This document shows, piece by piece, positions 3,229 through 46,554 of a DNA stretch of 64,000 nt. Each line of letters opens with the position of its first letter. Within the stretch, counting starts at the first letter, position 1. Under the pieces are notes generated by a model that was not told the DNA's origin, did not search any database, and worked only from the letters and a program-made list of their open reading frames with translations. The translations under genes and the position numbers were made by a program. This DNA is from a candidate division TA06 bacterium SM23_40 (GTDB taxonomy: Bacteria > LJUI01 > SM1-40): NCBI GenBank assembly GCA_001303705.1, contig LJUI01000010.1:193-64192 (forward strand), written 5' to 3'.

Positions 3229-4299
3229 CTATGCTCGGTCTTGCGTGATCGAATCGGGATTCAGAAGAAACCCGACATCTACGAGCTCGGCGCTGAATTC
3301 AACCAGTAATCTGGCGGCCCCCTCCACGTCAGCTGTGGCTACCACCTCTGCGGAGGTGTGCATATAACGAACGGGAATCCCCACGAGCGCCGTAGGCACC
3401 CCCTCACGCGTCAGCTGAATCGCGGCAGCATCTGTGCCCCGTGGGCGCGGCTCCGCCTCGTCCTGAATGGGGATCCCCTCTCTCTCCGCCGTCTCCATGA
3501 GACGGGCACGCAGCCGGGGATGATATCCCGGTCCCACCCCGAGGGTCGGTCCTCCGCCGAGTTCATACGTCTCGTACTTATCGACTCCGAGCATATCACC
3601 GTACGTGACATCGAGTACGACCGCGAGGCCGGGATCGAGCCCGTAGGCGCTGACGGTCGCCCCGAGATGCGCGATTTCCTCCTGGACCGTGGCGACTGCG
3701 TAGATATCCCACCGATGGTCCCGCCGGGCCAACTCCTCCACGGCGAGCACAAGGGCTGCCAGGCTTGCGCGGTCATCAAACGCCTTCGCCGCGCACAACC
3801 CCCCTTCCATCTCCATGAACTTCCGCGATAGGGCGATGGGATCGCCGGTCTTGACACGACGTCTCACAGTCCGCTCGGTGAGCCCGACATCTATGAATAG
3901 ATCTTCGATCTCTACTACCCGATCTTTCTCTTCTTCCAGCTGCAAATGAGGGGGTTCGGACCCGATCACTCCCGGCAGCCGCTTCTCACCATGAACCATG
4001 ACCTCCTGACCGGGAAGTACTCTCGGATCGATCCCGCCGACAGCGGCAAAGCGCAGCACACCGCCGCGGTCAACCTTCCTGACGATGAGGCCGATCTCAT
4101 CGGCATGTGCCGTCAGAAGCAGCCTCCCGCCATCTTCGCTACCCGGGAGGAGCGCGATTCGATTCCCGACGCGATCGACCTCAACCACGGCCCCGGCAGA
4201 TCGCATTTCCTCCTCGACGACCTTCCCGATCCCCGCCTCGAACCCGCTGATGCCGTCACTTTCACTCAGCCTCTGGAGCAACTCTATAGTCCGACCCAC
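3229..4299 (-). CDS. M42-family aminopeptidase paralog 3
   Basis: 356 aa. Motifs TAHADEIG, AFDDRASL, TVQEEIAHLGA, VRYMHTSAE. Confidence 0.88.
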   Translation of the reverse strand: MGRTIELLQRLSESDGISGFEAGIGKVVEEEMRSAGAVVEVDRVGNRIALLPGSEDGGRLLLTAHADEIGLIVRKVDRGGVLRFAAVGGIDPRVLPGQEVMVHGEKRLPGVIGSEPPHLQLEEEKDRVVEIEDLFIDVGLTERTVRRRVKTGDPIALSRKFMEMEGGLCAAKAFDDRASLAALVLAVEELARRDHRWDIYAVATVQEEIAHLGATVSAYGLDPGLAVVLDVTYGDMLGVDKYETYELGGGPTLGVGPGYHPRLRARLMETAEREGIPIQDEAEPRPRGTDAAAIQLTREGVPTALVGIPVRYMHTSAEVVATADVEGAARLLVEFSAELVDVGFLLNPDSITQDRA

Positions 4300-5170: not shown

Positions 5171-5924
5171 CGTTCATTACCTCCCTGGCGAGCTCCATAT
5201 AGCTCGCCGCACCTGTGGACAGGATATCATACAGGATGATCGGTTTGCCGAAACTGGGCGCCTCGGAGAGCCGAACGTTTCGGGGAATGACAGTCCGGTA
5301 CACTTTGTGGCTGAAGTATTTCCTCGCCTCCTCGAGAACCTGCTTCGAGAGATTGAGGCGAGAGTCGTACATCGTCAGGAGAACGCCCTCTATGGTGAGA
5401 TCGGGATTGAGGTTCTTCTGCACGAGCCTGATGGTGTTCAGGAGTTGACCCAGTCCCTCGAGTGCATAGTACTCGCACTGAATCGGTATTAGGACCGAAT
5501 CGGCCGCCGTGAGACTGTTCACCGTCAGCAACCCGAGCGAAGGAGGGCAGTCCACGATGACATAGGAGTAATCATCCCGAACTGCATGCAATGCCCGCCT
5601 CAGCCGCGTCTCCCTGGCGAGCGCACTCACAAGCTCAACCTCAGCGCCCACCAGCCAGATGTGAGATGGGACGACCTCGAGATAGGGAACTTCGGTATCC
5701 CTGATCGCCTCCCGCACAGGCCGCTCATGAACCAGCACATCATAGATCGAGCTCGACAGGCTTTCTCTGTCAATGCCGAGCCCGCTCGTCGCATTCGCTT
5801 GGGGATCGACGTCCACGAGCAGCACGCGCCGTTCAGCAACGGCCAGACACGCCGACAGGTTCACCGATGTCGTCGTCTTACCCACCCCTCCCTTCTGATT
5901 GACGACTGCGATAATCTTTCCCAC
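5163..5924 (-). CDS. parA: chromosome partitioning ATPase ParA (Soj)
   Basis: Deviant Walker [18 protein letters not shown]. Best start is GTG 5924, preceded by GAGGAG 7 nt upstream. The ORF-track ATG at 6029 adds a 35-aa Cys/Arg-rich non-conserved extension. Confidence 0.93.
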
Positions 5925-6887: not shown

Positions 6888-8888
6888 TCAACCGGGCCCC
6901 CCTGTTTCACGTGAAACATCCACATCCGATCGATCACAGCCCGCCGACCGAACCAGCCGATCGACGTGCACTAACAGCAGTGAGATGTCCGCAGGGGTGA
7001 CTCCCGATATCCGGCTCGCCTGCCCGATGGTGCGCGGCATGACCGCTCTCAGCTTCTCCCTTGCCTCGGTCGATATACCTCTGAGGCTCGAGTAGTCGAT
7101 CCACCCGGGAATCGCCCGCTCCTCCAGGTCCCGAAGCCGCTGGACCCGGTCGTTCTGCCGGGCTATGTACCCCTCGTACTTCACGGCCACCTCCACCCGC
7201 TCACTCACTTCCCGGGGCAGGCGCCGCGAACACTCGTCTATCTTCCTCAGATCGGGGTACGTTACCTCAGGCCGCCTGAGAAGCTGCGCCAGGCTCTCGG
7301 GCTCGGCGAGTTCACGGGATCCTACTGCCTTCAGAAGTTCGTTCGATTTGGCCACCGTGGGCCTGGTGCGCTCCAGTCTTCGCCGCTCCTCATCGACGCC
7401 CCGCCGCAGCGCATCCAGGGCTTCCATTGCCCGCCCGGAGATGAGGCCGAACCGGTGCCCGTAATGCATGAGCCGCTCATCGGCGTTGTCGTGCCGCAGC
7501 AGCAGGCGATACTCAGCCCTGGAGGTGAACATACGATAGGGCTCCCCGGTGCCCTTCGTCACAAGGTCGTCGATGAGAACGCCGATGTAAGCCTCCGACC
7601 TCCGGGGCACGAACGGCTCCTCGCCCTGCAGCCGGAGCGCTGCATTGATGCCGGCGACGAGGCCCTGGGCCGCCGCCTCCTCATATCCTGAGGTGCCATT
7701 GATCTGCCCCGCGAGGAAGAGGCCGGTCAGGCGCTTCGTTTCGAGCCACGGCTGGAGCTGCGTGGGGGGAACGAAATCGTATTCGATCGCATAGCCAGGC
7801 CTCAGTATCTCCGTCCGCTCCAACCCCGGAAGTGTCCGCACCATCGAGAGCTGCACATCCTCCGGCAAAGACGATGAAAGCCCGCTCAGATAGTACTCGT
7901 GCGTTGCCCTCCCTTCCGGCTCCAGGAAGATCTGGTGACGCCCCTTCTCCGGGAACCTGACGACCTTGTCCTCTATGCTCGGACAGTACCGGGGCCCGAT
8001 GCCCTCGATCCTCCCGGAGAACAGGGGAGAGCGATCGAGATTTCGACGGATGATCGCATGCGTCTGGTCTACCGTGTAGGTGACATAGCAATCGAGCTGT
8101 CCCCTGAGGAATCCGGGAAGGGACAGGGTCTCCCCTTCCTTCAACATAGTACAGGCCTCTCCCGCATCTGCCTCTTCCCCCTCGGGGCGCAGCGTCCGGT
8201 GCGAGAAGACCCGCGGGTCAGAATCGCCTGGCTGCCGCTGTAACCGGCTGAAATCTACTGTCTTCCCGTCGATGCGGGGCGACGTCCCCGTCTTCAGCCG
8301 GCCCAACTCCAACCCCAGCCGCCTCAACCTGCTTGACAGCCGGGAAGCAGCGAACTCTCCAGCGCGCCCCGCTCTGTAGGTCGACAAGCCTATATGTATC
8401 AGACCATTAAGGAATGTCCCCGTGGTCAAGATGACAGCCCCTCCCCGATATCTCATGCCTCCGAGCGTTCCGATCCCCACCACACGACCTGCCCGTGCGT
8501 GCACCGTCTGAACCAGACCCTGCTTGAGGTCCACGCCCGCCTGTCTGTCGATGCACAGCAGCATCTCTCTCCGATACAAACGCTTATCGGATTGGACCCG
8601 CAGGGCCCGGACCGCAGGCCCCTTCTTTGTGTTGAGCATGCGGAACTGGATCCCGGTCGCATCGGCGACCCTTCCCATCTCTCCGCCGATGGCGTCTATC
8701 TCTTTAACCAAGTGGCCTTTAGCGACTCCACCGATAGACGGATTGCACGACATCTGGGCCACGGTGTCGATATTGAGGGTCATGAGGAGGACGCGCATGC
8801 CCATCCTGGCGGCGGCAAGGGCAGCCTCACACCCGGCATGACCCGCGCCAACCACAATCACATCGTAGGTCTCAGGATAGATGGGCAC
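6888..8888 (-). CDS. mnmG: tRNA uridine 5-carboxymethylaminomethyl modification enzyme MnmG (GidA)
   Basis: FAD motif [23 protein letters not shown]. Preferred start is GTG 8888 (giving [14 protein letters not shown]), with GGGAGA upstream. Alternative starts are ATG 8921 and 9005. Contains an insertion of about 25 aa ([27 protein letters not shown]) relative to the E. coli protein as I recall it. Confidence 0.93.
6903..6918. promoter_or_regulatory. parS: parS centromere site, perfect 16-bp palindrome TGTTTCACGTGAAACA
   Basis: Exact match to the canonical parS consensus. It lies inside the last codons of mnmG (..VSRET..), 1.7 kb from parB. Confidence 0.9.
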
Positions 8889-40724: not shown

Positions 40725-42143
40725 CTAGCGCCTGAGGAGATGGATGGCCTTCCCGATTGCCCCCTCTGCTGCCTCGACAAGCGATTCGGAAAGCGTAGGG
40801 TGAGGATGAATGGTGCGGGCGATATCGTGGATCGTTGCTTCCATCTCGATCGCCAGGGCCGCCTCCCCGATGAGAACACCCGCCTCAGGCCCCACAATGT
40901 GGACCCCCAGCACCTTCTCCGTTCCCTTTTGGGCCACCACGTTCACAAATCCATCTGGTTGAGCCATGGTGAGGGCGCGCCCCAGGGCGGCGAACGGGAA
41001 TCTGCCGACTATTGTCTCTATCCCCTGCGCTTTGGCCTGGGCATCGGTCATTCCGACGGTGGCGATCTCCGGATCGGTGAAGACGACCGCGGGCACGACC
41101 CTCCAATCGACTCTTGCATCTTGTCCTGCAATCACGGTTGCGGCGAGGATCCCCTCCCGCGATGCCTTGTGGGCCAGGAGGGGCTGGCCGGCGACGTCCC
41201 CGATGGCGAAGACGTGCGGGACTGAGGTGCGCATCTGGTCGTCGGTATTGATGAATCCCCCGTCGCCGAGCAGTACACCAGCTGCGTCGAGTCCGAGGTC
41301 TTCGGTATTGGGGCGCCTGCCCACGGTGATGAGAGCTCTGTCGAACGGGATGGTTTCCCTCGTCCCCTCGCGCTCCACTTCGAGAACCGTCCTCCCGTCT
41401 TCCTCCTTCACTCCCACCGCTTTCGTGCGTAGATGCACTTCTATTGCGAGCTGTTTGAGCCGGCGGGCTACGGTCTGGACGAGGCGGAGTTCAGTGCCGG
41501 GAAGGAGCTGGTCAAGCATCTCGACGACTGTGACCGCGCTGCCGAGTTTGGCGTATACCGTGCCCAGCTCGAGCCCGATATACCCGCCGCCGACCACGAG
41601 GAGTCGCGGTGGCACCTCCTGGAGGGCGAGGGCTTCGGTCGAGGTGATGATGCGCTCGCCGTCGAACGGCAGCCCGGGGATCTCGAAGGGGCGGGATCCG
41701 GTGGCGATTATCGCGTGCTCGAATTCGATCTCTCCTGTGCCGTCGGGCGTCCTTACCTCGACCTGTCTCGGCCCGGTGAGCCGGGCGACACCCTGGACCA
41801 CGACCACGCCATTACCTTTGAGGAGCTTTGCAACGCCGTCGGTGAGCCGTCTGATGATATCGGTCTTCCACGCCTGGAGCTTCGATATGTCGACGTTCGC
41901 CCCTTCCACCAACACCCCCATCTCCTGTGCCGTTGTCGACCGGTGCACGAGGTCCGCTGCCGAGATGAGTGCTTTCGACGGGATGCAGCCGTGGTTCAGG
42001 CAGATGCCTCCAGGCGATGGTTCCTTTTCCACGAGCGTCGTCTCCACTCCGAGCTGTGCCGCCCGGATGGCGGCCACATATCCTCCAGGCCCGGCTCCGA
42101 TCACGAGCAGTCGGGTGGACTTCGGGAGTTCGTTCTCCGGCAT
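40725..42143 (-). CDS. lpdA: dihydrolipoyl dehydrogenase
   Basis: LLVIGAGPGGYVAAIRAAQLG, redox disulfide GGICLNHGCIPSKAL, and C-terminal HPHPTLSE dimerisation motif. Confidence 0.94.
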   Translation of the reverse strand: MPENELPKSTRLLVIGAGPGGYVAAIRAAQLGVETTLVEKEPSPGGICLNHGCIPSKALISAADLVHRSTTAQEMGVLVEGANVDISKLQAWKTDIIRRLTDGVAKLLKGNGVVVVQGVARLTGPRQVEVRTPDGTGEIEFEHAIIATGSRPFEIPGLPFDGERIITSTEALALQEVPPRLLVVGGGYIGLELGTVYAKLGSAVTVVEMLDQLLPGTELRLVQTVARRLKQLAIEVHLRTKAVGVKEEDGRTVLEVEREGTRETIPFDRALITVGRRPNTEDLGLDAAGVLLGDGGFINTDDQMRTSVPHVFAIGDVAGQPLLAHKASREGILAATVIAGQDARVDWRVVPAVVFTDPEIATVGMTDAQAKAQGIETIVGRFPFAALGRALTMAQPDGFVNVVAQKGTEKVLGVHIVGPEAGVLIGEAALAIEMEATIHDIARTIHPHPTLSESLVEAAEGAIGKAIHLLRR

Positions 42144-42182
42144 GTCGTATTCCTCCTGATGAAGAGACCGGGGATGGAGACC

Positions 42183-42277
42183 GGGGACGTTGGTAGGTTC
42201 TGAAGGTTACCGGAAGACACCGACCGGGGGATCCTGGAGGAGTCCACAATAGCCTTCAGAACCTTGGCGCGTCCGGG
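42183..42277 (-). repeat. 26-nt repeat, copy A (42183-42208, minus orientation) plus degenerate inverted copy (42252-42277)
   Basis: The reverse complement of 42183-42208 is AACCTTCAGAACCTACCAACGTCCCC, 40 nt upstream of the lpd start. 42252-42277 reads CCTTCAGAACCTTGGCGCGTCCGGGG on the plus strand. Confidence 0.8.
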
Positions 42278-42456
42278 GGCAACCGATAACCTCCTGAAGC
42301 TACTGCTCTCCCCCGAGATCGTTCATGCTGGATGATTCACGAGTCGCGAGCGATGTACGAGTGTCTGTTCCTCGCCCCCTTCGGGGCAGAGGAGCGTCGG
42401 GCATGTACTGAGCGCAGAGCGTAGCACGGGCGAGTCATTTAGTCAACTCCGCGCCC

Positions 42457-45201
42457 TCATGCCGCGTCTGGCGCGGCGTGGTCACGTGGGGTCGACCGCG
42501 TAGAATCGACCCTGCGCGAGAACCGGTCGACAAGGCCGAGGAGTGCGGGCAGGGCCACGAGCGAGGTGATAAGACAGGTTCCTACTCCGATGAACAGGAG
42601 TGAACCCAGACTTCCCAGTCCTCGATAGGTGGCGAAGACGAGCGAGCCGAAGGCGAGCATAGTCGTCAGCGAGGTGATGAGAACAGCTTTCCCCGTGCTC
42701 GACAGGATCGCGCGGATGTTGCCTCTCGCCTCGACGCGATGTCGGTGGAGAATGTGGACGCCGTCGTCGATGCCGATCCCGAGAATTAGCGGGATGCCCA
42801 TTACATTGACGATGGTGAGCTTCATCCCGATCAGATGCATGATGCCCACCATCCAGACTGCGCCGATGAGGAGCGGGATCATCGCCAGGAGTGTCGATCG
42901 GATGCTGTGGAAGTCGAGAAAGAGAAGGAGAAAGATTACGATGAGTGCGACCCCGGTGGCCCGGCGTCCGTCCCTGCCGATGACCTGTATGAGCTCGAGG
43001 AAAAGCGGAGGCGTGCCCGTGACACGGGGGTCGATTCGCTTCATCTGCTCAGTGAACCGGTTCAGGAACTTGATGTTCCACACCTGTTCCTTGGGGTAGA
43101 TCGTGACGAGGAATCTGTCCCCGCTTCTGCTTACATACCGTTCGACGATATCGGTAGGGACACTGTCAATGGTGATGGGATCGGGTGAGGCCATTGCCAT
43201 CGCCCTCTGTCGGAGGATCGGTTCATACTGCGACTGGAAGTGGTTGAGGTGGCGGACGGCCTTCGTACGATCTTCCCCGATGTGGTCGATGGCAAGAGCG
43301 ATCGGGCCCGGCCCCTGGCTCTCCCCCGGCTCGCCGAGGATCCTCTGGCATGTTCGATCTACTTTGTCCCGTCCGCTGATGAACGCGAGCTGACTCAACT
43401 CAACGACATTATCCTCCAGCCTGCCGAGTTCTTCGATGAGTCTGCCAAGCGTGCCCGGGGTGATGGGCGAGACGGTTCGGTTCGCCGTGAGATCGCGGCG
43501 GATCTTCCATAGATACGGGCGACGTCGCTGCTGCTGCTCCTGCGACGGCAGATATTCGGAGATGCTCTCGACTCCCCCGACGATGCCGAGTTCCTTGGCT
43601 GCCTCGGCGATCGTCCGCGCATCCTCAACGGTGCTGGTCGTGATAAGGGCGAAATCAGGGCTGATGTCGAACTTCTCTATCATCCGCTCCTGGAGAATAA
43701 CCGATGTCAACCCCTCCGGCTCCATATTGAGGTAGTTGTAGTCGAATTGGACGTGGAGGGCGCTGTAGAGAAAGAGGGCGGTGAGTAACAGGACGGCGAT
43801 GAGGGTGGGGGTCGAGTATCGGGCCGCACCGTCAGCCAGTGCGCCGATGAAGGTGAACTGGCGTGCTCGAAATCTGACCCGGTGGCGCGCGATGCGGGCG
43901 GCGATTCTCTCGCGCAGAGTGAGCATCGAGGGGAGGACGAGGACCGCCGACAGCATACAGAGGATGACTCCTTCCCCCATGACGAAGCCCATTTCGCGTA
44001 TGCCGGCCGAGTCGGCGATCATGAGGGTGAAAAAGGCGCATGCGGTCGTGAGGGCACCGGTGACGATACCCGACCCGGACTTGTTGAGCGTGTCGCGCAA
44101 AGCATCGGGAACCGATTCGCCCATGGCGCGGCGCTCGGTGTACAGAGAAATGATATGGATGGAAAAATCGACGCCCAGGCCGAGAAGGATGGCGGCAAAC
44201 ATGGAGGTCATGATATTGAGTGTACGGACGGTGACCGCCGCCAGGGCCGCCGCCCAGGTGATCCCGATGATGAGGTTGAGCGCGGCGAGGAGCGGAGCAG
44301 TCCACATACGGAAAGAGAAGATGAACAGAGCCAGGATGAGGACCAGCGCGAGGATGGAGGTGAGATACATGTCGCTCCGTGCGGCGACAAGCTCATCGCG
44401 GGCGAGGACTATTGTCCCCGTGAGGCCGGCATCGATGCCGGGGTGCGCAGCGGCGAGGTCGTCGATGAGCGCCTCGATCGTATCGCATGCTGCGACACAC
44501 ATGTCGAGGTCGGTAATCGGAAATGTCGGACGGACGATGAGGAGGAGCATCGTCTTGTCATAGGATAGATAGTAGGGGTCACCGACAAGGAGGGTGTACA
44601 CGGCATCCCGGGCAACAGCCGGATCTGTGGCAGGGCCGCGGAGGGCGTACTGATCGATTGCCTTGATCCACCGTTCCAGGCCCTCGAGGTAGCGAATAGC
44701 TTCATCCTCTTTTTCCTTGGTGCTGAGACTCAGCTCGTCCTCGACGTATTCTTTCTCGAACGAGTCGTTGATGTGGGCGAGGAGGGGGATGAGGGCGAGG
44801 TCGGAGAAGAGGTCCTGTAAGTTCTCGAGATCGGAGGTCTCCTCTAACATAAATCCGTGTCGTGCGATGTAGCCTTCGTCGATCTTGTGGGTCACTCGCT
44901 CGACATACTCCTCCAGCTGTTCAACGCTCGCAGCCAGCCGGTCGGCGAACGGTTTCATCTGATCGGGCTCGCCCTGTACCACGATGATAATATTCGATGC
45001 AGTGCTGTACTCCTCGACGATCTTGTTGAACTCCACGACCATCGGATTACCCTGGGGCATGAGGTCGGAAAACCTGGTGGTGAGCTGGAGCCGAGTGGCG
45101 ACACCTGCCGCGAGGGCGGTGGCTATGAGGGCCACGAGCACGATAATGCCCGAATGCCGGTACGTCATGCGGGCGATGAAAGTAAATATCCGTTGGCGCA
45201 T
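42457..45201 (-). CDS. MMPL/RND-superfamily exporter (two-halves, ~12 TM)
   Basis: 914 aa. Duplicated membrane domains with large loops. Resembles MMPL/HpnN-like transporters. Confidence 0.85.
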   Translation of the reverse strand: MRQRIFTFIARMTYRHSGIIVLVALIATALAAGVATRLQLTTRFSDLMPQGNPMVVEFNKIVEEYSTASNIIIVVQGEPDQMKPFADRLAASVEQLEEYVERVTHKIDEGYIARHGFMLEETSDLENLQDLFSDLALIPLLAHINDSFEKEYVEDELSLSTKEKEDEAIRYLEGLERWIKAIDQYALRGPATDPAVARDAVYTLLVGDPYYLSYDKTMLLLIVRPTFPITDLDMCVAACDTIEALIDDLAAAHPGIDAGLTGTIVLARDELVAARSDMYLTSILALVLILALFIFSFRMWTAPLLAALNLIIGITWAAALAAVTVRTLNIMTSMFAAILLGLGVDFSIHIISLYTERRAMGESVPDALRDTLNKSGSGIVTGALTTACAFFTLMIADSAGIREMGFVMGEGVILCMLSAVLVLPSMLTLRERIAARIARHRVRFRARQFTFIGALADGAARYSTPTLIAVLLLTALFLYSALHVQFDYNYLNMEPEGLTSVILQERMIEKFDISPDFALITTSTVEDARTIAEAAKELGIVGGVESISEYLPSQEQQQRRRPYLWKIRRDLTANRTVSPITPGTLGRLIEELGRLEDNVVELSQLAFISGRDKVDRTCQRILGEPGESQGPGPIALAIDHIGEDRTKAVRHLNHFQSQYEPILRQRAMAMASPDPITIDSVPTDIVERYVSRSGDRFLVTIYPKEQVWNIKFLNRFTEQMKRIDPRVTGTPPLFLELIQVIGRDGRRATGVALIVIFLLLFLDFHSIRSTLLAMIPLLIGAVWMVGIMHLIGMKLTIVNVMGIPLILGIGIDDGVHILHRHRVEARGNIRAILSSTGKAVLITSLTTMLAFGSLVFATYRGLGSLGSLLFIGVGTCLITSLVALPALLGLVDRFSRRVDSTRSTPRDHAAPDAA

Positions 45202-45229
45202 CAGGGCCGTCCTCCCCAGTGATCAGGCG

Positions 45230-45258
45230 ATTATAAAAATACCCCCTCTCCCTGTCAA
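45230..45258 (-). promoter_or_regulatory. strong sigma70-type promoter TTGACA-N17-TATAAT for the MMPL gene
   Basis: On the minus strand, TTGACA is at 45258-45253 and TATAAT at 45235-45230. GGAGG RBS lies 10 nt before ATG 45201. Confidence 0.7.
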
Positions 45259-45305
45259 TACCAGCCGGGGAAGTACCCAGGTTTTGAAGGTTATTGACAT
45301 CGAGG

Positions 45306-45331
45306 CGGGGACGTTGGTAGGTTCTGTAGGT
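45306..45331 (-). repeat. 26-nt repeat, copy B
   Basis: The reverse complement is AACCTACAGAACCTACCAACGTCCCC, identical (26/26) to copy F. It lies upstream of, and co-oriented with, the MMPL gene. Confidence 0.85.
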
Positions 45332-45445
45332 TGGTGATCCCGGGCATAAGCACTCGTAGGTTCCAAAGGCCTGCTCAAGCCCGACAATCCTGATGCAGAC
45401 GAGCTCTCAGGGTCGGACATGTCGGTATGTCGGTGCTGCTCCAGC

Positions 45446-45471
45446 AACCCACGCTTCCTACCAACGTCCCC
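45446..45471 (+). repeat. 26-nt repeat, copy C
   Basis: AACCCACGCTTCCTACCAACGTCCCC. Confidence 0.8.
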
Positions 45472-45575
45472 GGCAGGGTCTGAGGAGCGCATAAGGCGGC
45501 GCTGCCGCAATGATCTTCGTCTTCTGCAAACATCTGGTGGGTATGGGTAGGCGGGGTCCCCGAGGGATTTGCGAC

Positions 45576-45682
45576 AACCTTCAAAATCTAGGTACGTCCC
45601 CGGGTGTTACCGGCAACCTTCGTTTCCTACCAACGTCCCCGGCGGGTCATGCCAGTAACCTACAGAACCTACCAACGTCCCC
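45576..45682 (+). repeat. three tandem copies (D, E, F) of the 26-nt repeat at 39-42-nt spacing
   Basis: 45576 AACCTTCAAAATCTAGGTACGTCCCC; 45615 AACCTTCGTTTCCTACCAACGTCCCC; 45657 AACCTACAGAACCTACCAACGTCCCC. All point toward the creatininase-family gene. Confidence 0.85.
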
Positions 45683-45695
45683 GGTGTGCCCGGTG

Positions 45696-45724
45696 TTGAC
45701 AGGGGAGGGAGCGTCCGTCATACT
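45696..45724 (+). promoter_or_regulatory. sigma70-type promoter TTGACA-N17-CATACT
   Basis: TTGACAGGGGAGGGAGCGTCCGTCATACT, 87 nt upstream of GTG 45811. Confidence 0.5.
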
Positions 45725-45810
45725 GGGCCCTGCAGGGCGGTGTGATTCGATCGGGAACGACTGGGAAGAGTGTGCAGCACCATATCGAGAATGACTGGAA
45801 AGGAGGAGCG

Positions 45811-46554
45811 GTGAGGACACTCTATCGGGAGCTGACGAGCGAGGAGATACGGGAGGCCGCCGAGCAAGACTACATCGCGGTGCTCCCTACGGGGTGCATC
45901 GAGCAGCACGGTCCGCATCTTCCCGTCGACGTGGATTTCGGTGGGTTTGAGGATATGCTGGCAGAGGCTGCCGAGCTCGCCCGCGAGACGCATGGTCTCA
46001 AGATTCTGGTGATGCCTCCCATCCCCTACGGGCCAGCAAACGAGCACATGGGGTTCCCGGGAACGATCTCGATCTCCTATCAGACCTATTTCCGGTTCCT
46101 GTTCGAGATTGCTGTCTCTCTTATCGAGCACGGCTTTCGCCGGATCGCACTCGCGCCCGGATGCGGTGGCCACTATCTCGAACCGGCTGCCTGGGAAGTT
46201 CGGAGATGGGCCGCGGAGGAGGGGAAGCCGGCTGTTGTGTGGGTGCTCTCGTGCAACTACTGTGAGATCGGGGAGCGCCTCATCCCCGGGACATCCGATT
46301 TCCATGCGGGAGAGTTCGAGACCTCGTTGGTGCTGGCCACACGGGAGCATCTCGTGAGGAAGGAGAAGATCAGGAGACCGAAGCTGGCCGAATTCTCGTT
46401 CAAATCGGCGTGGTCGATGCACGAAATCTCGGACACCGGGGCATCCGGCGATCCGACGAAAGCAACGAAAGAGACGGGGGAGCAAATCTACCGGAGCATC
46501 ATTGAGTTCTGGTGTGCCCAGTTCAAGGAGATCGAGGAGGGCGAGGCAGAGTAG
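45811..46554 (+). CDS. creatininase-family amidohydrolase
   Basis: GTG 45811 preceded by AGGAGG. Signature ..AVLPTGCIEQHGPHLPVDVD.. and ..HAGEFETS... Confidence 0.85.
   Translation: MRTLYRELTSEEIREAAEQDYIAVLPTGCIEQHGPHLPVDVDFGGFEDMLAEAAELARETHGLKILVMPPIPYGPANEHMGFPGTISISYQTYFRFLFEIAVSLIEHGFRRIALAPGCGGHYLEPAAWEVRRWAAEEGKPAVVWVLSCNYCEIGERLIPGTSDFHAGEFETSLVLATREHLVRKEKIRRPKLAEFSFKSAWSMHEISDTGASGDPTKATKETGEQIYRSIIEFWCAQFKEIEEGEAE

Follow-up and report, generated by a model that had tools for sequence, protein, structure and literature searches.

The 26-nt repeat units between genes of the window (the whole 64,000-nt stretch of DNA that was analysed) belong to a multicopy intergenic family with no orientation preference relative to genes, and in other genomes the same unit is associated with a transposase gene. 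We consider it likely, with good confidence, that the units are gene-less terminal inverted repeat (TIR) copies of a TIRtron. An earlier note on this DNA had read them as ECF-type promoters co-oriented with the downstream genes. That reading is unsupported because of the mixed orientation of the units, the conservation of the whole unit, the varying period of the arrays and the identity of the unit with a TIR. The note's fallback, a small REP/MITE-like element, is supported by the unit being the TIR of a Y1-transposase element in other genomes.

Repeat units and promoters in the window

The proposed 26-nt repeat family is real. The 15-mer CCTACCAACGTCCCC occurs exactly five times in the window, at 42183 (-), 45307 (-), 45457 (+), 45626 (+) and 45668 (+), against an expectation of about 1e-4 exact matches for a given 15-mer (128 kb, i.e., both strands). 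The 26-nt unit is AACC-N7-CCTACCAACGTCCCC; the spacer of eight bases given for it before was one too long, and the unit length and the AAC-N16-CGTC spacing, which is present in every good copy, were right. The units, and two promoters that lie outside the repeats and are included for context, are as follows.

42183..42208, minus strand: copy A, type 1 (AACCTTCAGAACCTACCAACGTCCCC), 1 mismatch to the T1 consensus of the lineage
42251..42276, plus strand: copy A', decayed, inverted relative to A, pointing at the MMPL 3' end
42288..42313, plus strand: copy A'', decayed (7 mismatches), 37 nt downstream of A' and in like orientation
45230..45258, minus strand: MMPL promoter, sigma70-type TTGACA-N17-TATAAT, 12/12 matches
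45267..45292, minus strand: copy B', type 2 (AACCTTCAAAACCTGGGTACTTCCCC), a D-type variant, outermost of the left array
45307..45332, minus strand: copy B, type 1, perfect inverted match to F
about 45346..45371, minus strand: possible half-copy B'', decayed and weak (12/26 mismatches), keeping only GTAGGTTCCAAAGG (45356-45369)
45446..45471, plus strand: copy C, type 1 core with a diverged 5' half, innermost of the right array
45576..45601, plus strand: copy D, type 2 (CTAGGTACGTCCCC), 2 mismatches to the T2 consensus
45615..45640, plus strand: copy E, type 1
45657..45682, plus strand: copy F, type 1, outermost of the right array, 13 nt from the creatininase-family -35 box
45696..45724, plus strand: creatininase-family promoter, sigma70-type TTGACA-N17-CATACT

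All copies are intergenic, as had been reported. In one cluster (42183-42313) a single minus-strand unit precedes a pair on the plus strand, and in the other (45267-45682) two or three units on the minus strand precede four on the plus strand. The six good copies and the degenerate one counted before were all recovered, and B', A'' and possibly B'' had been missed. The coordinates of A, C, D, E and F stand, B lies one base further right than had been given, and the degenerate inverted copy (A') begins at 42251 and ends at 42276, not at 42252 and 42277. A weak echo at 248-274 differs from the unit at more than 10 of 26 positions and is due to chance, because a shuffled window contains about 16 sites with ≤10 mismatches to the 26-mer.

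The identity of B and F was confirmed as perfect, the two being complementary over 27/27 nt (100%) in inverted orientation. The AACC ends of A and A' face each other across a 42-nt spacer, and their 15-nt arms are 93% complementary. A single 26-mer is not self-complementary (minimum free energy of 0.0 kcal/mol for type 1) and contains CGTC and GTAG internally, never as an unpaired tag on a stem; a structured RNA in the single unit was rejected as it has no fold. Between inverted units, the A/A' hairpin in the minus-strand RNA had z = -2.4 and the pairing of the inverted arms of the B-F region had z = -4.0. No U-tract terminators were predicted at the window arrays.

Group 4 ECF promoters (of the B. 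subtilis SigW/SigX/SigM type) have the form AAC-N16-17-CGT(A/C). If the units were ECF-sigma promoters, AAC would be the -35 and CGTC the -10 element, and transcription of lpd, of the MMPL gene and of the creatininase-family gene would start from them. The 16-nt geometry in all good copies is in line with this, and so is the position of copy A, whose outer end is 39 nt (not 40, as first given) from the lpd ATG, in a region where no sigma70-type promoter was found between the MMPL stop and that ATG, so that copy A could in principle act as a promoter. The good copies in the window also all aim at gene starts, as had been claimed, although A' and A'' face the MMPL 3' end and the pattern did not hold in the lineage. 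The co-orientation in the window arises because the inverted array pair sits in a divergent intergenic region. Against the promoter reading, the MMPL and creatininase-family genes have strong sigma70-type promoters of their own outside the arrays. These had correctly been noticed just past B and F, and TTGACA-N17 boxes were found on both sides: the MMPL TTGACA begins 8 nt past B', which is nearer to this promoter than B, just outside the left array, and the creatininase-family TTGACA begins 13 nt past F, just outside the right array.

Arrays in the lineage of the window

A scan of metagenomes identified 64 GC-rich sediment contigs (GC 0.56-0.63, like the window) with 239 copies, of which 161 in 68 clusters were non-redundant. 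The window's own contig is absent from both collection scans, and the contigs are linked to its organism by read depth. The depth of contig L054 equals that of the window in three metagenomes (8, 23 and 6, respectively), with zero differences for L054 in run X5. The repeats themselves are covered 10-30-fold more deeply, and they are places where assembly contigs break.

The clusters are either one-directional tandem arrays or inverted array pairs, in which the AACC ends point inwards and the CGTCCCC ends outwards. The longest example of the former has six minus-strand units head-to-tail with a period of 31-32 nt (L049), and another has four minus-strand units in one direction (L061). Across the 161 non-redundant copies the array period was 28-44 nt, with modes at 31-32 and 43-44, and with the spacing spread over this range a fixed helical phasing was rejected. 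CRISPR was ruled out by the period and by the absence of fixed-length unique spacers. The inner spacers at minus/plus junctions (n = 18) were 21-294 nt long and unrelated between inverted arrays, matching only among redundant samplings of one locus. Conservation spans the whole 26 nt, with ≥86% conservation at 20/26 positions, among them 10-15 and 19 within the would-be promoter spacer.

The orientation of the outward (CGTCCCC) ends was tallied in the lineage contigs and in lower-GC genomes, and neither showed a preference for gene starts. In the 68 non-redundant lineage clusters, 37 ends (83 copies) face the 3' end of a gene and 30 (60 copies) face a gene start, and 32 of those 37 lie ≤28 nt from the stop codon. 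In the lower-GC genomes the corresponding numbers were 41 and 26, with six copies inside ORFs. Both tallies argue against ECF promoters, random orientation being a result that the note itself had named as refuting them, as do the conservation of the would-be spacer along with the boxes, the tandem arrays such as the six head-to-tail units described above, and the fact that in other phyla the identical sequence forms the inverted ends of a transposase unit. We therefore regard ECF promoters as highly improbable, and the likeness of AAC-N16-CGTC to them is most likely coincidental.

The same stop codon-proximal placement would suit an exaptation of the units, secondary to a selfish origin, as RNA or DNA hairpins with REP-like roles in mRNA stabilisation or termination. 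In that case, transcripts would carry inverted units in their 3' UTRs or between co-transcribed genes such as MMPL-lpd. The pairing of A with A' in the minus-strand transcript and the perfect 27-nt pairing of B with F are consistent with this, and E. coli REP elements hold such roles (reviewed in PMC3733652). However, many arrays are one-directional and cannot pair (including the six-unit and four-unit arrays above), and the U-tract terminators are lacking among the predictions. Such a role is rather unlikely, though it deserves some weight.

Sigma70-like sequences adjoin the arrays beyond the window as well. A match to TTGACn-N16-18-(T/C)AnnnT was detected within 2-31 nt, mostly 8-16 nt, of the outward end at 17 of 80 ends in the lineage, compared with 0.5% of random 70-mers, and this excess could reflect more than passive survival. 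On one side the arrays stop within a few bases of stop codons, and on the other they leave 8-16 nt to a -35 box.

One explanation would be that the arrays are binding sites of a host protein, possibly a domesticated TIRYT or its HTH domain, acting as an upstream activator, repressor or insulator. The window arrays halt 8 and 13 nt before the -35 boxes, the promoter matches follow the outward ends more often than in random sequence, conservation over 26 bp is typical of protein recognition, and the associated enzyme has a dsDNA-binding HTH of the DnaA-C type. Yet most array ends adjoin stop codons, 8 of the 43 clusters that were fully resolved sit in promoter-less gaps between convergent genes, the 28-44-nt period is not helix-phased, and no candidate regulator is known. 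Intergenic regions are also short, and therefore any insert would be near both a stop codon and a promoter. Overall, binding sites of this kind appear quite improbable.

Among strains, no presence/absence polymorphism of the window copies was seen, only small spacer indels, and the data thus hold no direct evidence of current mobility.

The transposase unit in other genomes

The gene-less TIR interpretation is based on a cross-genome scan that yielded 46 loci; the near-invariant unit AACCTTCAAAACCTACCAACGTCCCC is present at almost all of them. This 26-mer occurs in many lower-GC genomes labelled "Deltaproteobacteria". In at least seven complete units of 1054-1099 bp, inverted 26-nt copies are located at both ends of an ORF of about 320 aa, and remnants of the transposase gene adjoin further repeat copies. 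The bracketed ORFs from these related genomes (L048 and L042, not the window) matched Pfam Y1_Tnp (PF01797) and Bac_DnaA_C (PF08299), and scored 73 bits against NCBIfam REP_Tyr_transpos, for which the cutoff is 80. The transposases are 51-69% identical to each other, with the TIR almost unchanged. The search for homologues gave more than 7,900 proteins, the majority of which have both domains. Integron attC sites, considered for the 0.7-1.9-kb segments between pairs, were rejected given that the AAC/GTT halves are wrongly ordered and the enclosed gene is a transposase, and the match to Tn3-type 38-bp ends (GGGG...TAAG) is limited to GGGG.

The full element would thus read GGGGACGTTGGTAGG..GAAGGTT-(gene)-AACCTTC..CCTACCAACGTCCCC, about 1.06 kb, with a single gene predicted to encode a Y1/HUH tyrosine transposase with a C-terminal DnaA-domain-IV-like HTH (TIRYT, TnpA-REP subclass 2.1). 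In the window's lineage the TIR appears to have multiplied without the transposase gene, the copies probably being made in trans by such a transposase, whose HTH and/or HUH domain may recognise the whole 26 bp. We suggest that new ends were joined beside existing ends, which would account for the arrays and for partial duplications of an end plus its flank. Copies would survive where they are harmless, in the stretch from a stop codon to the following -35 box, and inverted units could pair as REPIN-like hairpins.

An HMM search with a profile built from eight TIRYTs detected no TIRYT gene in the window or in the approximately 0.55 Mb of the 64 GC-rich contigs, and a resident mobilising enzyme in the lineage is therefore unproven; the enzyme may have been lost, be encoded in another part of the genome, or be supplied by a different genome. 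The five most GC-rich-encoded among the 120 best homologues were evaluated as the lineage's own TIRYT and rejected, as they belong to other genomes; they carry other TIR variants (GGGGACGTTGCTTCC, GGGGACGCTGGCAAC and GGGACGCTGCAAAG).

Relation to known repeats and implications

The TIRtron/TIRYT class was defined with the TIR motif GGGGWSAS (Di Nocera, De Gregorio & Rocco 2013, PMC3733652), and its equivalent is TnpA-REP subclass 2.1, whose enzymes have a Bac_DnaA_C/HTH tail (Quentin et al. 2018, PMC6006769). The element described here resembles TIRtrons in its single Y1/HUH transposase gene, DnaA-C-like HTH, long non-palindromic TIRs and GGGG outer end, and in that TIR copies in some genomes also occur alone, as dimers or in groups. 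It differs in the outer motif, which is GGGGACGT and matches GGGGWSAS at 6/8 positions (other clade members have GGGGACGCTG or GGGGACGTTG), and in a 26-bp TIR that is near-invariant across genomes of very different GC and phylum label. Published surveys found TIR families to be only moderately abundant (PMC3733652, PMC6006769), whereas the window's lineage has well over 100 copies in one-directional tandem arrays, with no transposase gene found in its GC-rich contigs.

Like REP/BIME/REPIN-RAYT systems of Enterobacteria and Pseudomonas (PMC2817692, PMC3116915), these are short intergenic multicopy repeats, often in inverted hairpin-capable pairs, mostly downstream of coding regions and flanking a cognate Y1 transposase gene. 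Unlike REPs, the unit is no palindrome (fold energy 0) and lacks the unpaired GTAG/CGTC tag on a stem, and units are stacked in one orientation, whereas BIME units alternate. The arrays share with MITEs that they are non-autonomous and bounded by inverted transposon-end copies, but they have no conserved interior or fixed length, the number of end copies per side varies, and the enzyme belongs to the Y1 and not to the DDE transposases.

Transposons with multi-site ends include Tn7 (TnsB sites) and Mu (L1-L3/R1-R3). The arrays resemble these, by analogy only, in that each side consists of several directly repeated protein-binding units and is inverted relative to the other; the enzyme class is different, there are 1-6 units, and most arrays enclose no gene.

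It is also conceivable, if unlikely, that, with the transposase apparently gone from the lineage and its 26-bp ends kept and amplified as directional arrays, the host has adopted the arrays as protein-bound boundary or upstream-promoter modules, or that they carry an outward ECF-like promoter, in which case the near-invariance of the 26-mer across phyla would stem from a conserved binding partner instead of recent transfer.

The repeats are probably another member of the published TIRtron/TIRYT class. For the organism, this disposes of a misleading idea: lpd, the MMPL exporter and the creatininase-family gene are most likely not joined in an ECF regulon, and promoter annotation for these genes should rely on the sigma70-type boxes outside the arrays. 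For the class, it adds a TIRYT-type family in which the 26-bp end is near-constant across genomes while enzyme identity falls to around 50%, repeats that expand as one-directional arrays, and a lineage where the repeats may have outlived their transposase gene. To our knowledge, TIRYT activity has never been demonstrated biochemically; the invariant 26-mer, together with the large protein family (which includes two paralogues of the cultivated Deferrisoma camini), provides a concrete start for TIRYT assays.

Repeat copies and genes in the window

A 15-mer, CCTACCAACGTCCCC, was found five times exactly in the window, confirming the repeats described in the earlier note. The 26-nt length, the AAC-N16-CGTC geometry and copies A to F are all correct, while the proposed N8 is N7 (true unit AACC-N7-CCTACCAACGTCCCC), copy B had been placed one base too far left, and the "echo" at 248-274 is at chance level, with more than 10 of 26 positions mismatched.

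Repeat copies and adjoining genes in the window (coordinates, strand, feature)
40725-42143, minus: dihydrolipoyl-dehydrogenase-type flavoprotein (lpd)
42183-42208, minus: copy A, good copy
42251-42276, plus: copy A', additional copy
42288-42313, plus: copy A'', additional copy
42457-45201, minus: MMPL/RND-type transporter
45267-45292, minus: copy B', additional copy, D-like variant
45307-45332, minus: copy B, good copy
45346-45371, minus: copy B'', possible decayed half-copy
45446-45471, plus: copy C, good copy
45576-45601, plus: copy D, good copy, variant
45615-45640, plus: copy E, good copy
45657-45682, plus: copy F, good copy
45742-46554, plus: creatininase-family protein

From left to right, cluster 1 consists of A, a 42-nt spacer, A' and A'', and cluster 2 of B', B, possibly B'', a spacer, and C to F. 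Minus-strand copies lie on the left and plus-strand copies on the right, with AACC ends facing inward and CGTCCCC ends outward. B matches F perfectly in inverted orientation across 27 nt, and B' and D are one and the same variant. Repeat positions are identical in the sister assembly, and among strains no presence/absence variation of the window copies was seen, only small spacer indels. The MMPL gene is a single ORF of 914 aa in the window (42457-45201) and two ORFs of 408 and 495 aa in the sister assembly (L002 6775-9460), a split that reflects either a frameshift or a difference in assembly.

Cluster 2 is bordered on its outside by strong sigma70-type promoters: TTGACA-N17-TATAAT starts 8 nt past B', and TTGACA-N17-CATACT starts 13 nt past F. 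Past the -35 hexamer, both carry TTGACAGGG(G)AG(G/A)G (45249-45258 and 45696-45709); this extension does not seem to be part of the repeat, since it is absent from the -35 boxes beyond arrays at other loci. In the intergenic stretch that separates the MMPL gene from lpd (42144-42456), neither a minus-strand sigma70-type promoter nor an intrinsic terminator was found, so the simple reading is that lpd may be co-transcribed with the MMPL exporter, with the A/A' hairpin within the intercistronic RNA.

The repeat family in the window's lineage

A metagenome scan with AACCNNNNNNNYCTASSWACGTCCCC followed by G matched 87 loci, 64 of them with a GC content of 0.56-0.63 (window, 0.60) and stemming from SMTZ1_, Ga0111224_, Ga0111195_, Ga0209427_ and Ga0209636_ records. 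These 64 contigs hold 239 copies (161 non-redundant) of two subtypes that frequently alternate within arrays, T1 (AACCTTCTGAACCTACCAACGTCCCC; n = 116) and T2 (AACCTTCAAAACCyrGGTACGTCCCC; n = 45). Conservation is at least 86% at 20 of the 26 unit positions; the other six are 6, 8, 9 and the three of the T1/T2 switch (16-18). At the switch, CCA in T1 and GGT in T2 (E 45630-45632 versus D 45591-45593) are complements without reversal; a partner segment making the switch compensatory was looked for and none was found.

Tandem arrays have one orientation and up to six units, with start-to-start spacings of 28-44 nt (modes 31-32 and 43-44) and thus no fixed helical phase. Inverted array pairs like those of the window also occur, with mutually unrelated inner spacers of 21-294 nt. 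One contig, L054 (Ga0111224_1007), very probably belongs to the window's genome, because its depths in metagenome runs X1, X5 and X6 (8.0, 23.2 and ~6) agree with those of the window (8.5, 22.6 and ~6) and it has no differences in X5. Coverage climbs 10-30-fold across the repeats, the excess coming from many distinct contigs at roughly the window/L054 depth, and assemblies break there. L049, which carries a six-unit array (depth ~5, 18 and 4; ~1% differences), is from a close relative; beside this array, a second depth spike (7344-7477) falls on a tRNA-like sequence (loose ends ..GGGTTCAAATCCCAC), so the array directly adjoins a tRNA gene. On L061 (Ga0209636_10013502), four tandem paralogous genes with T9SS-type C-terminal tails (..YFCRLEAGDFTETRRMVILR*) each have an array 6 nt after the stop codon, aimed into the 3' end (1043, 3312-3487, 5620-5760 and 8187).

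The earlier note likened the repeats to ECF-type promoters co-oriented with downstream genes. Counted on gene calls from ORF heuristics (length plus GC3/GC2), and hence approximately, 37 outward ends (83 copies) in 68 non-redundant clusters of the lineage point to a gene 3' end, 32 of them from no more than 28 nt beyond the stop codon, and 30 (60 copies) point to a gene start. Contexts were co-directional (24), divergent (11) or convergent (8). In the lower-GC genomes described below the counts were 41 versus 26, with 6 inside predicted ORFs, and 11 of the 41 abut or overlap the neighbour's stop codon (TAG-GGGACG). The clear lack of co-orientation in both sets, conservation along the entire unit and the dense tandem stacking refute the ECF-promoter reading on the earlier note's own terms and make an ECF regulon most unlikely. 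The co-orientation inside the window is what an inverted array pair in a divergent intergenic region always shows.

A sigma70-like promoter match follows 17 of 80 outward ends at a distance of 2-31 nt, compared with 0.5% of random 70-mers. We attribute this to short intergenic regions, in which anything inserted after a stop codon and ahead of the next promoter will inevitably neighbour the two; the units might alternatively be upstream protein-binding sites, a putative role. Inverted units can pair, so REP-like RNA effects are possible.

A transposase gene between inverted units

Scanning one genome per prokaryotic species with AACCNNNNNNNYCTASSWACGTCCCC gave 46 loci, nearly all in lower-GC MAGs labelled Deltaproteobacteria, Syntrophobacterales, Desulfobacterales or Geobacteraceae, where the unit is near-invariant, AACCTTCA(A/T)AACCTACCAACGTCCCC. 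At least seven (L048, L042, L007, L006, L036, L003 and L032) have two inverted units around a 1054-1099-bp segment that contains one ~320-aa ORF, in the layout GGGGACGTTGGTAGG..GAAGGTT-[ORF]-AACCTTC..CCTACCAACGTCCCC; further copies are adjoined by pieces of the transposase gene. The ORF matches Pfam Y1_Tnp (IS200-like) and Bac_DnaA_C, and its match to NCBIfam "REP-associated tyrosine transposase" is slightly below the cutoff. It has more than 7,900 homologues, many called RayT or transposase. Transposases bounded by the 26-mer share only 51-69% pairwise identity. Related ends (GGGGACGTTGCTTCC, GGGGACGCTGGCAAC), again with duplicated end copies, occur in other members of the clade.

[quoted passage not shown] In the classification of Quentin et al., TIRYTs fall within TnpA-REP subclass 2.1, with members bearing Bac_DnaA_C/HTH tails (PMC6006769). 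The 26-nt family fits this class, with its Y1 transposase gene between long TIRs in other genomes. A profile search found no TIRYT gene in the window or the GC-rich contigs, and the most GC-rich-coded homologues looked up (five, among the best 120 of more than 7,900) were all from other genomes.

Many homologues lie on contigs of 1,064-1,072 nt, one TIRtron length, which suggests that assemblies routinely break at multicopy TIRtron ends. Complete TIRtrons (L048 4440-5506; L042 5150-6203; L007, L006, L036 and L003) mostly have TA next to each end (..TA-GGGGACG ... CGTCCCC-TA..), and in the GC-rich lineage the two flanking bases are mostly GG instead. Three explanations offer themselves: a repeat that includes the TA, a TA target, or stop codons provided by insertion.

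Array growth and place of the family

We propose that a TIRYT would recognise the whole 26 bp and copy or join ends beside existing ends. Two observations support such end-joining. At L061 1043-1068 and its flank, CCAACGwCCCCGGTGTTCTAGCGCA occurs twice, i.e., CCAACG(T/A)CCCCGGTGTTCTAGCGCA, and partial copies of the outer end plus 8-15 nt of flank, repeated in tandem, are also present in L138 (~170-230), L023, L032, L034 and L041; these may be the footprint of array growth. Right ends are duplicated in other TIRtrons as well. Judged by sequence comparison, the window repeats are a member of the TIRtron/TIRYT (REP-like) family, unusually expanded and array-forming; the class was already known, and this family of it is newly described here.
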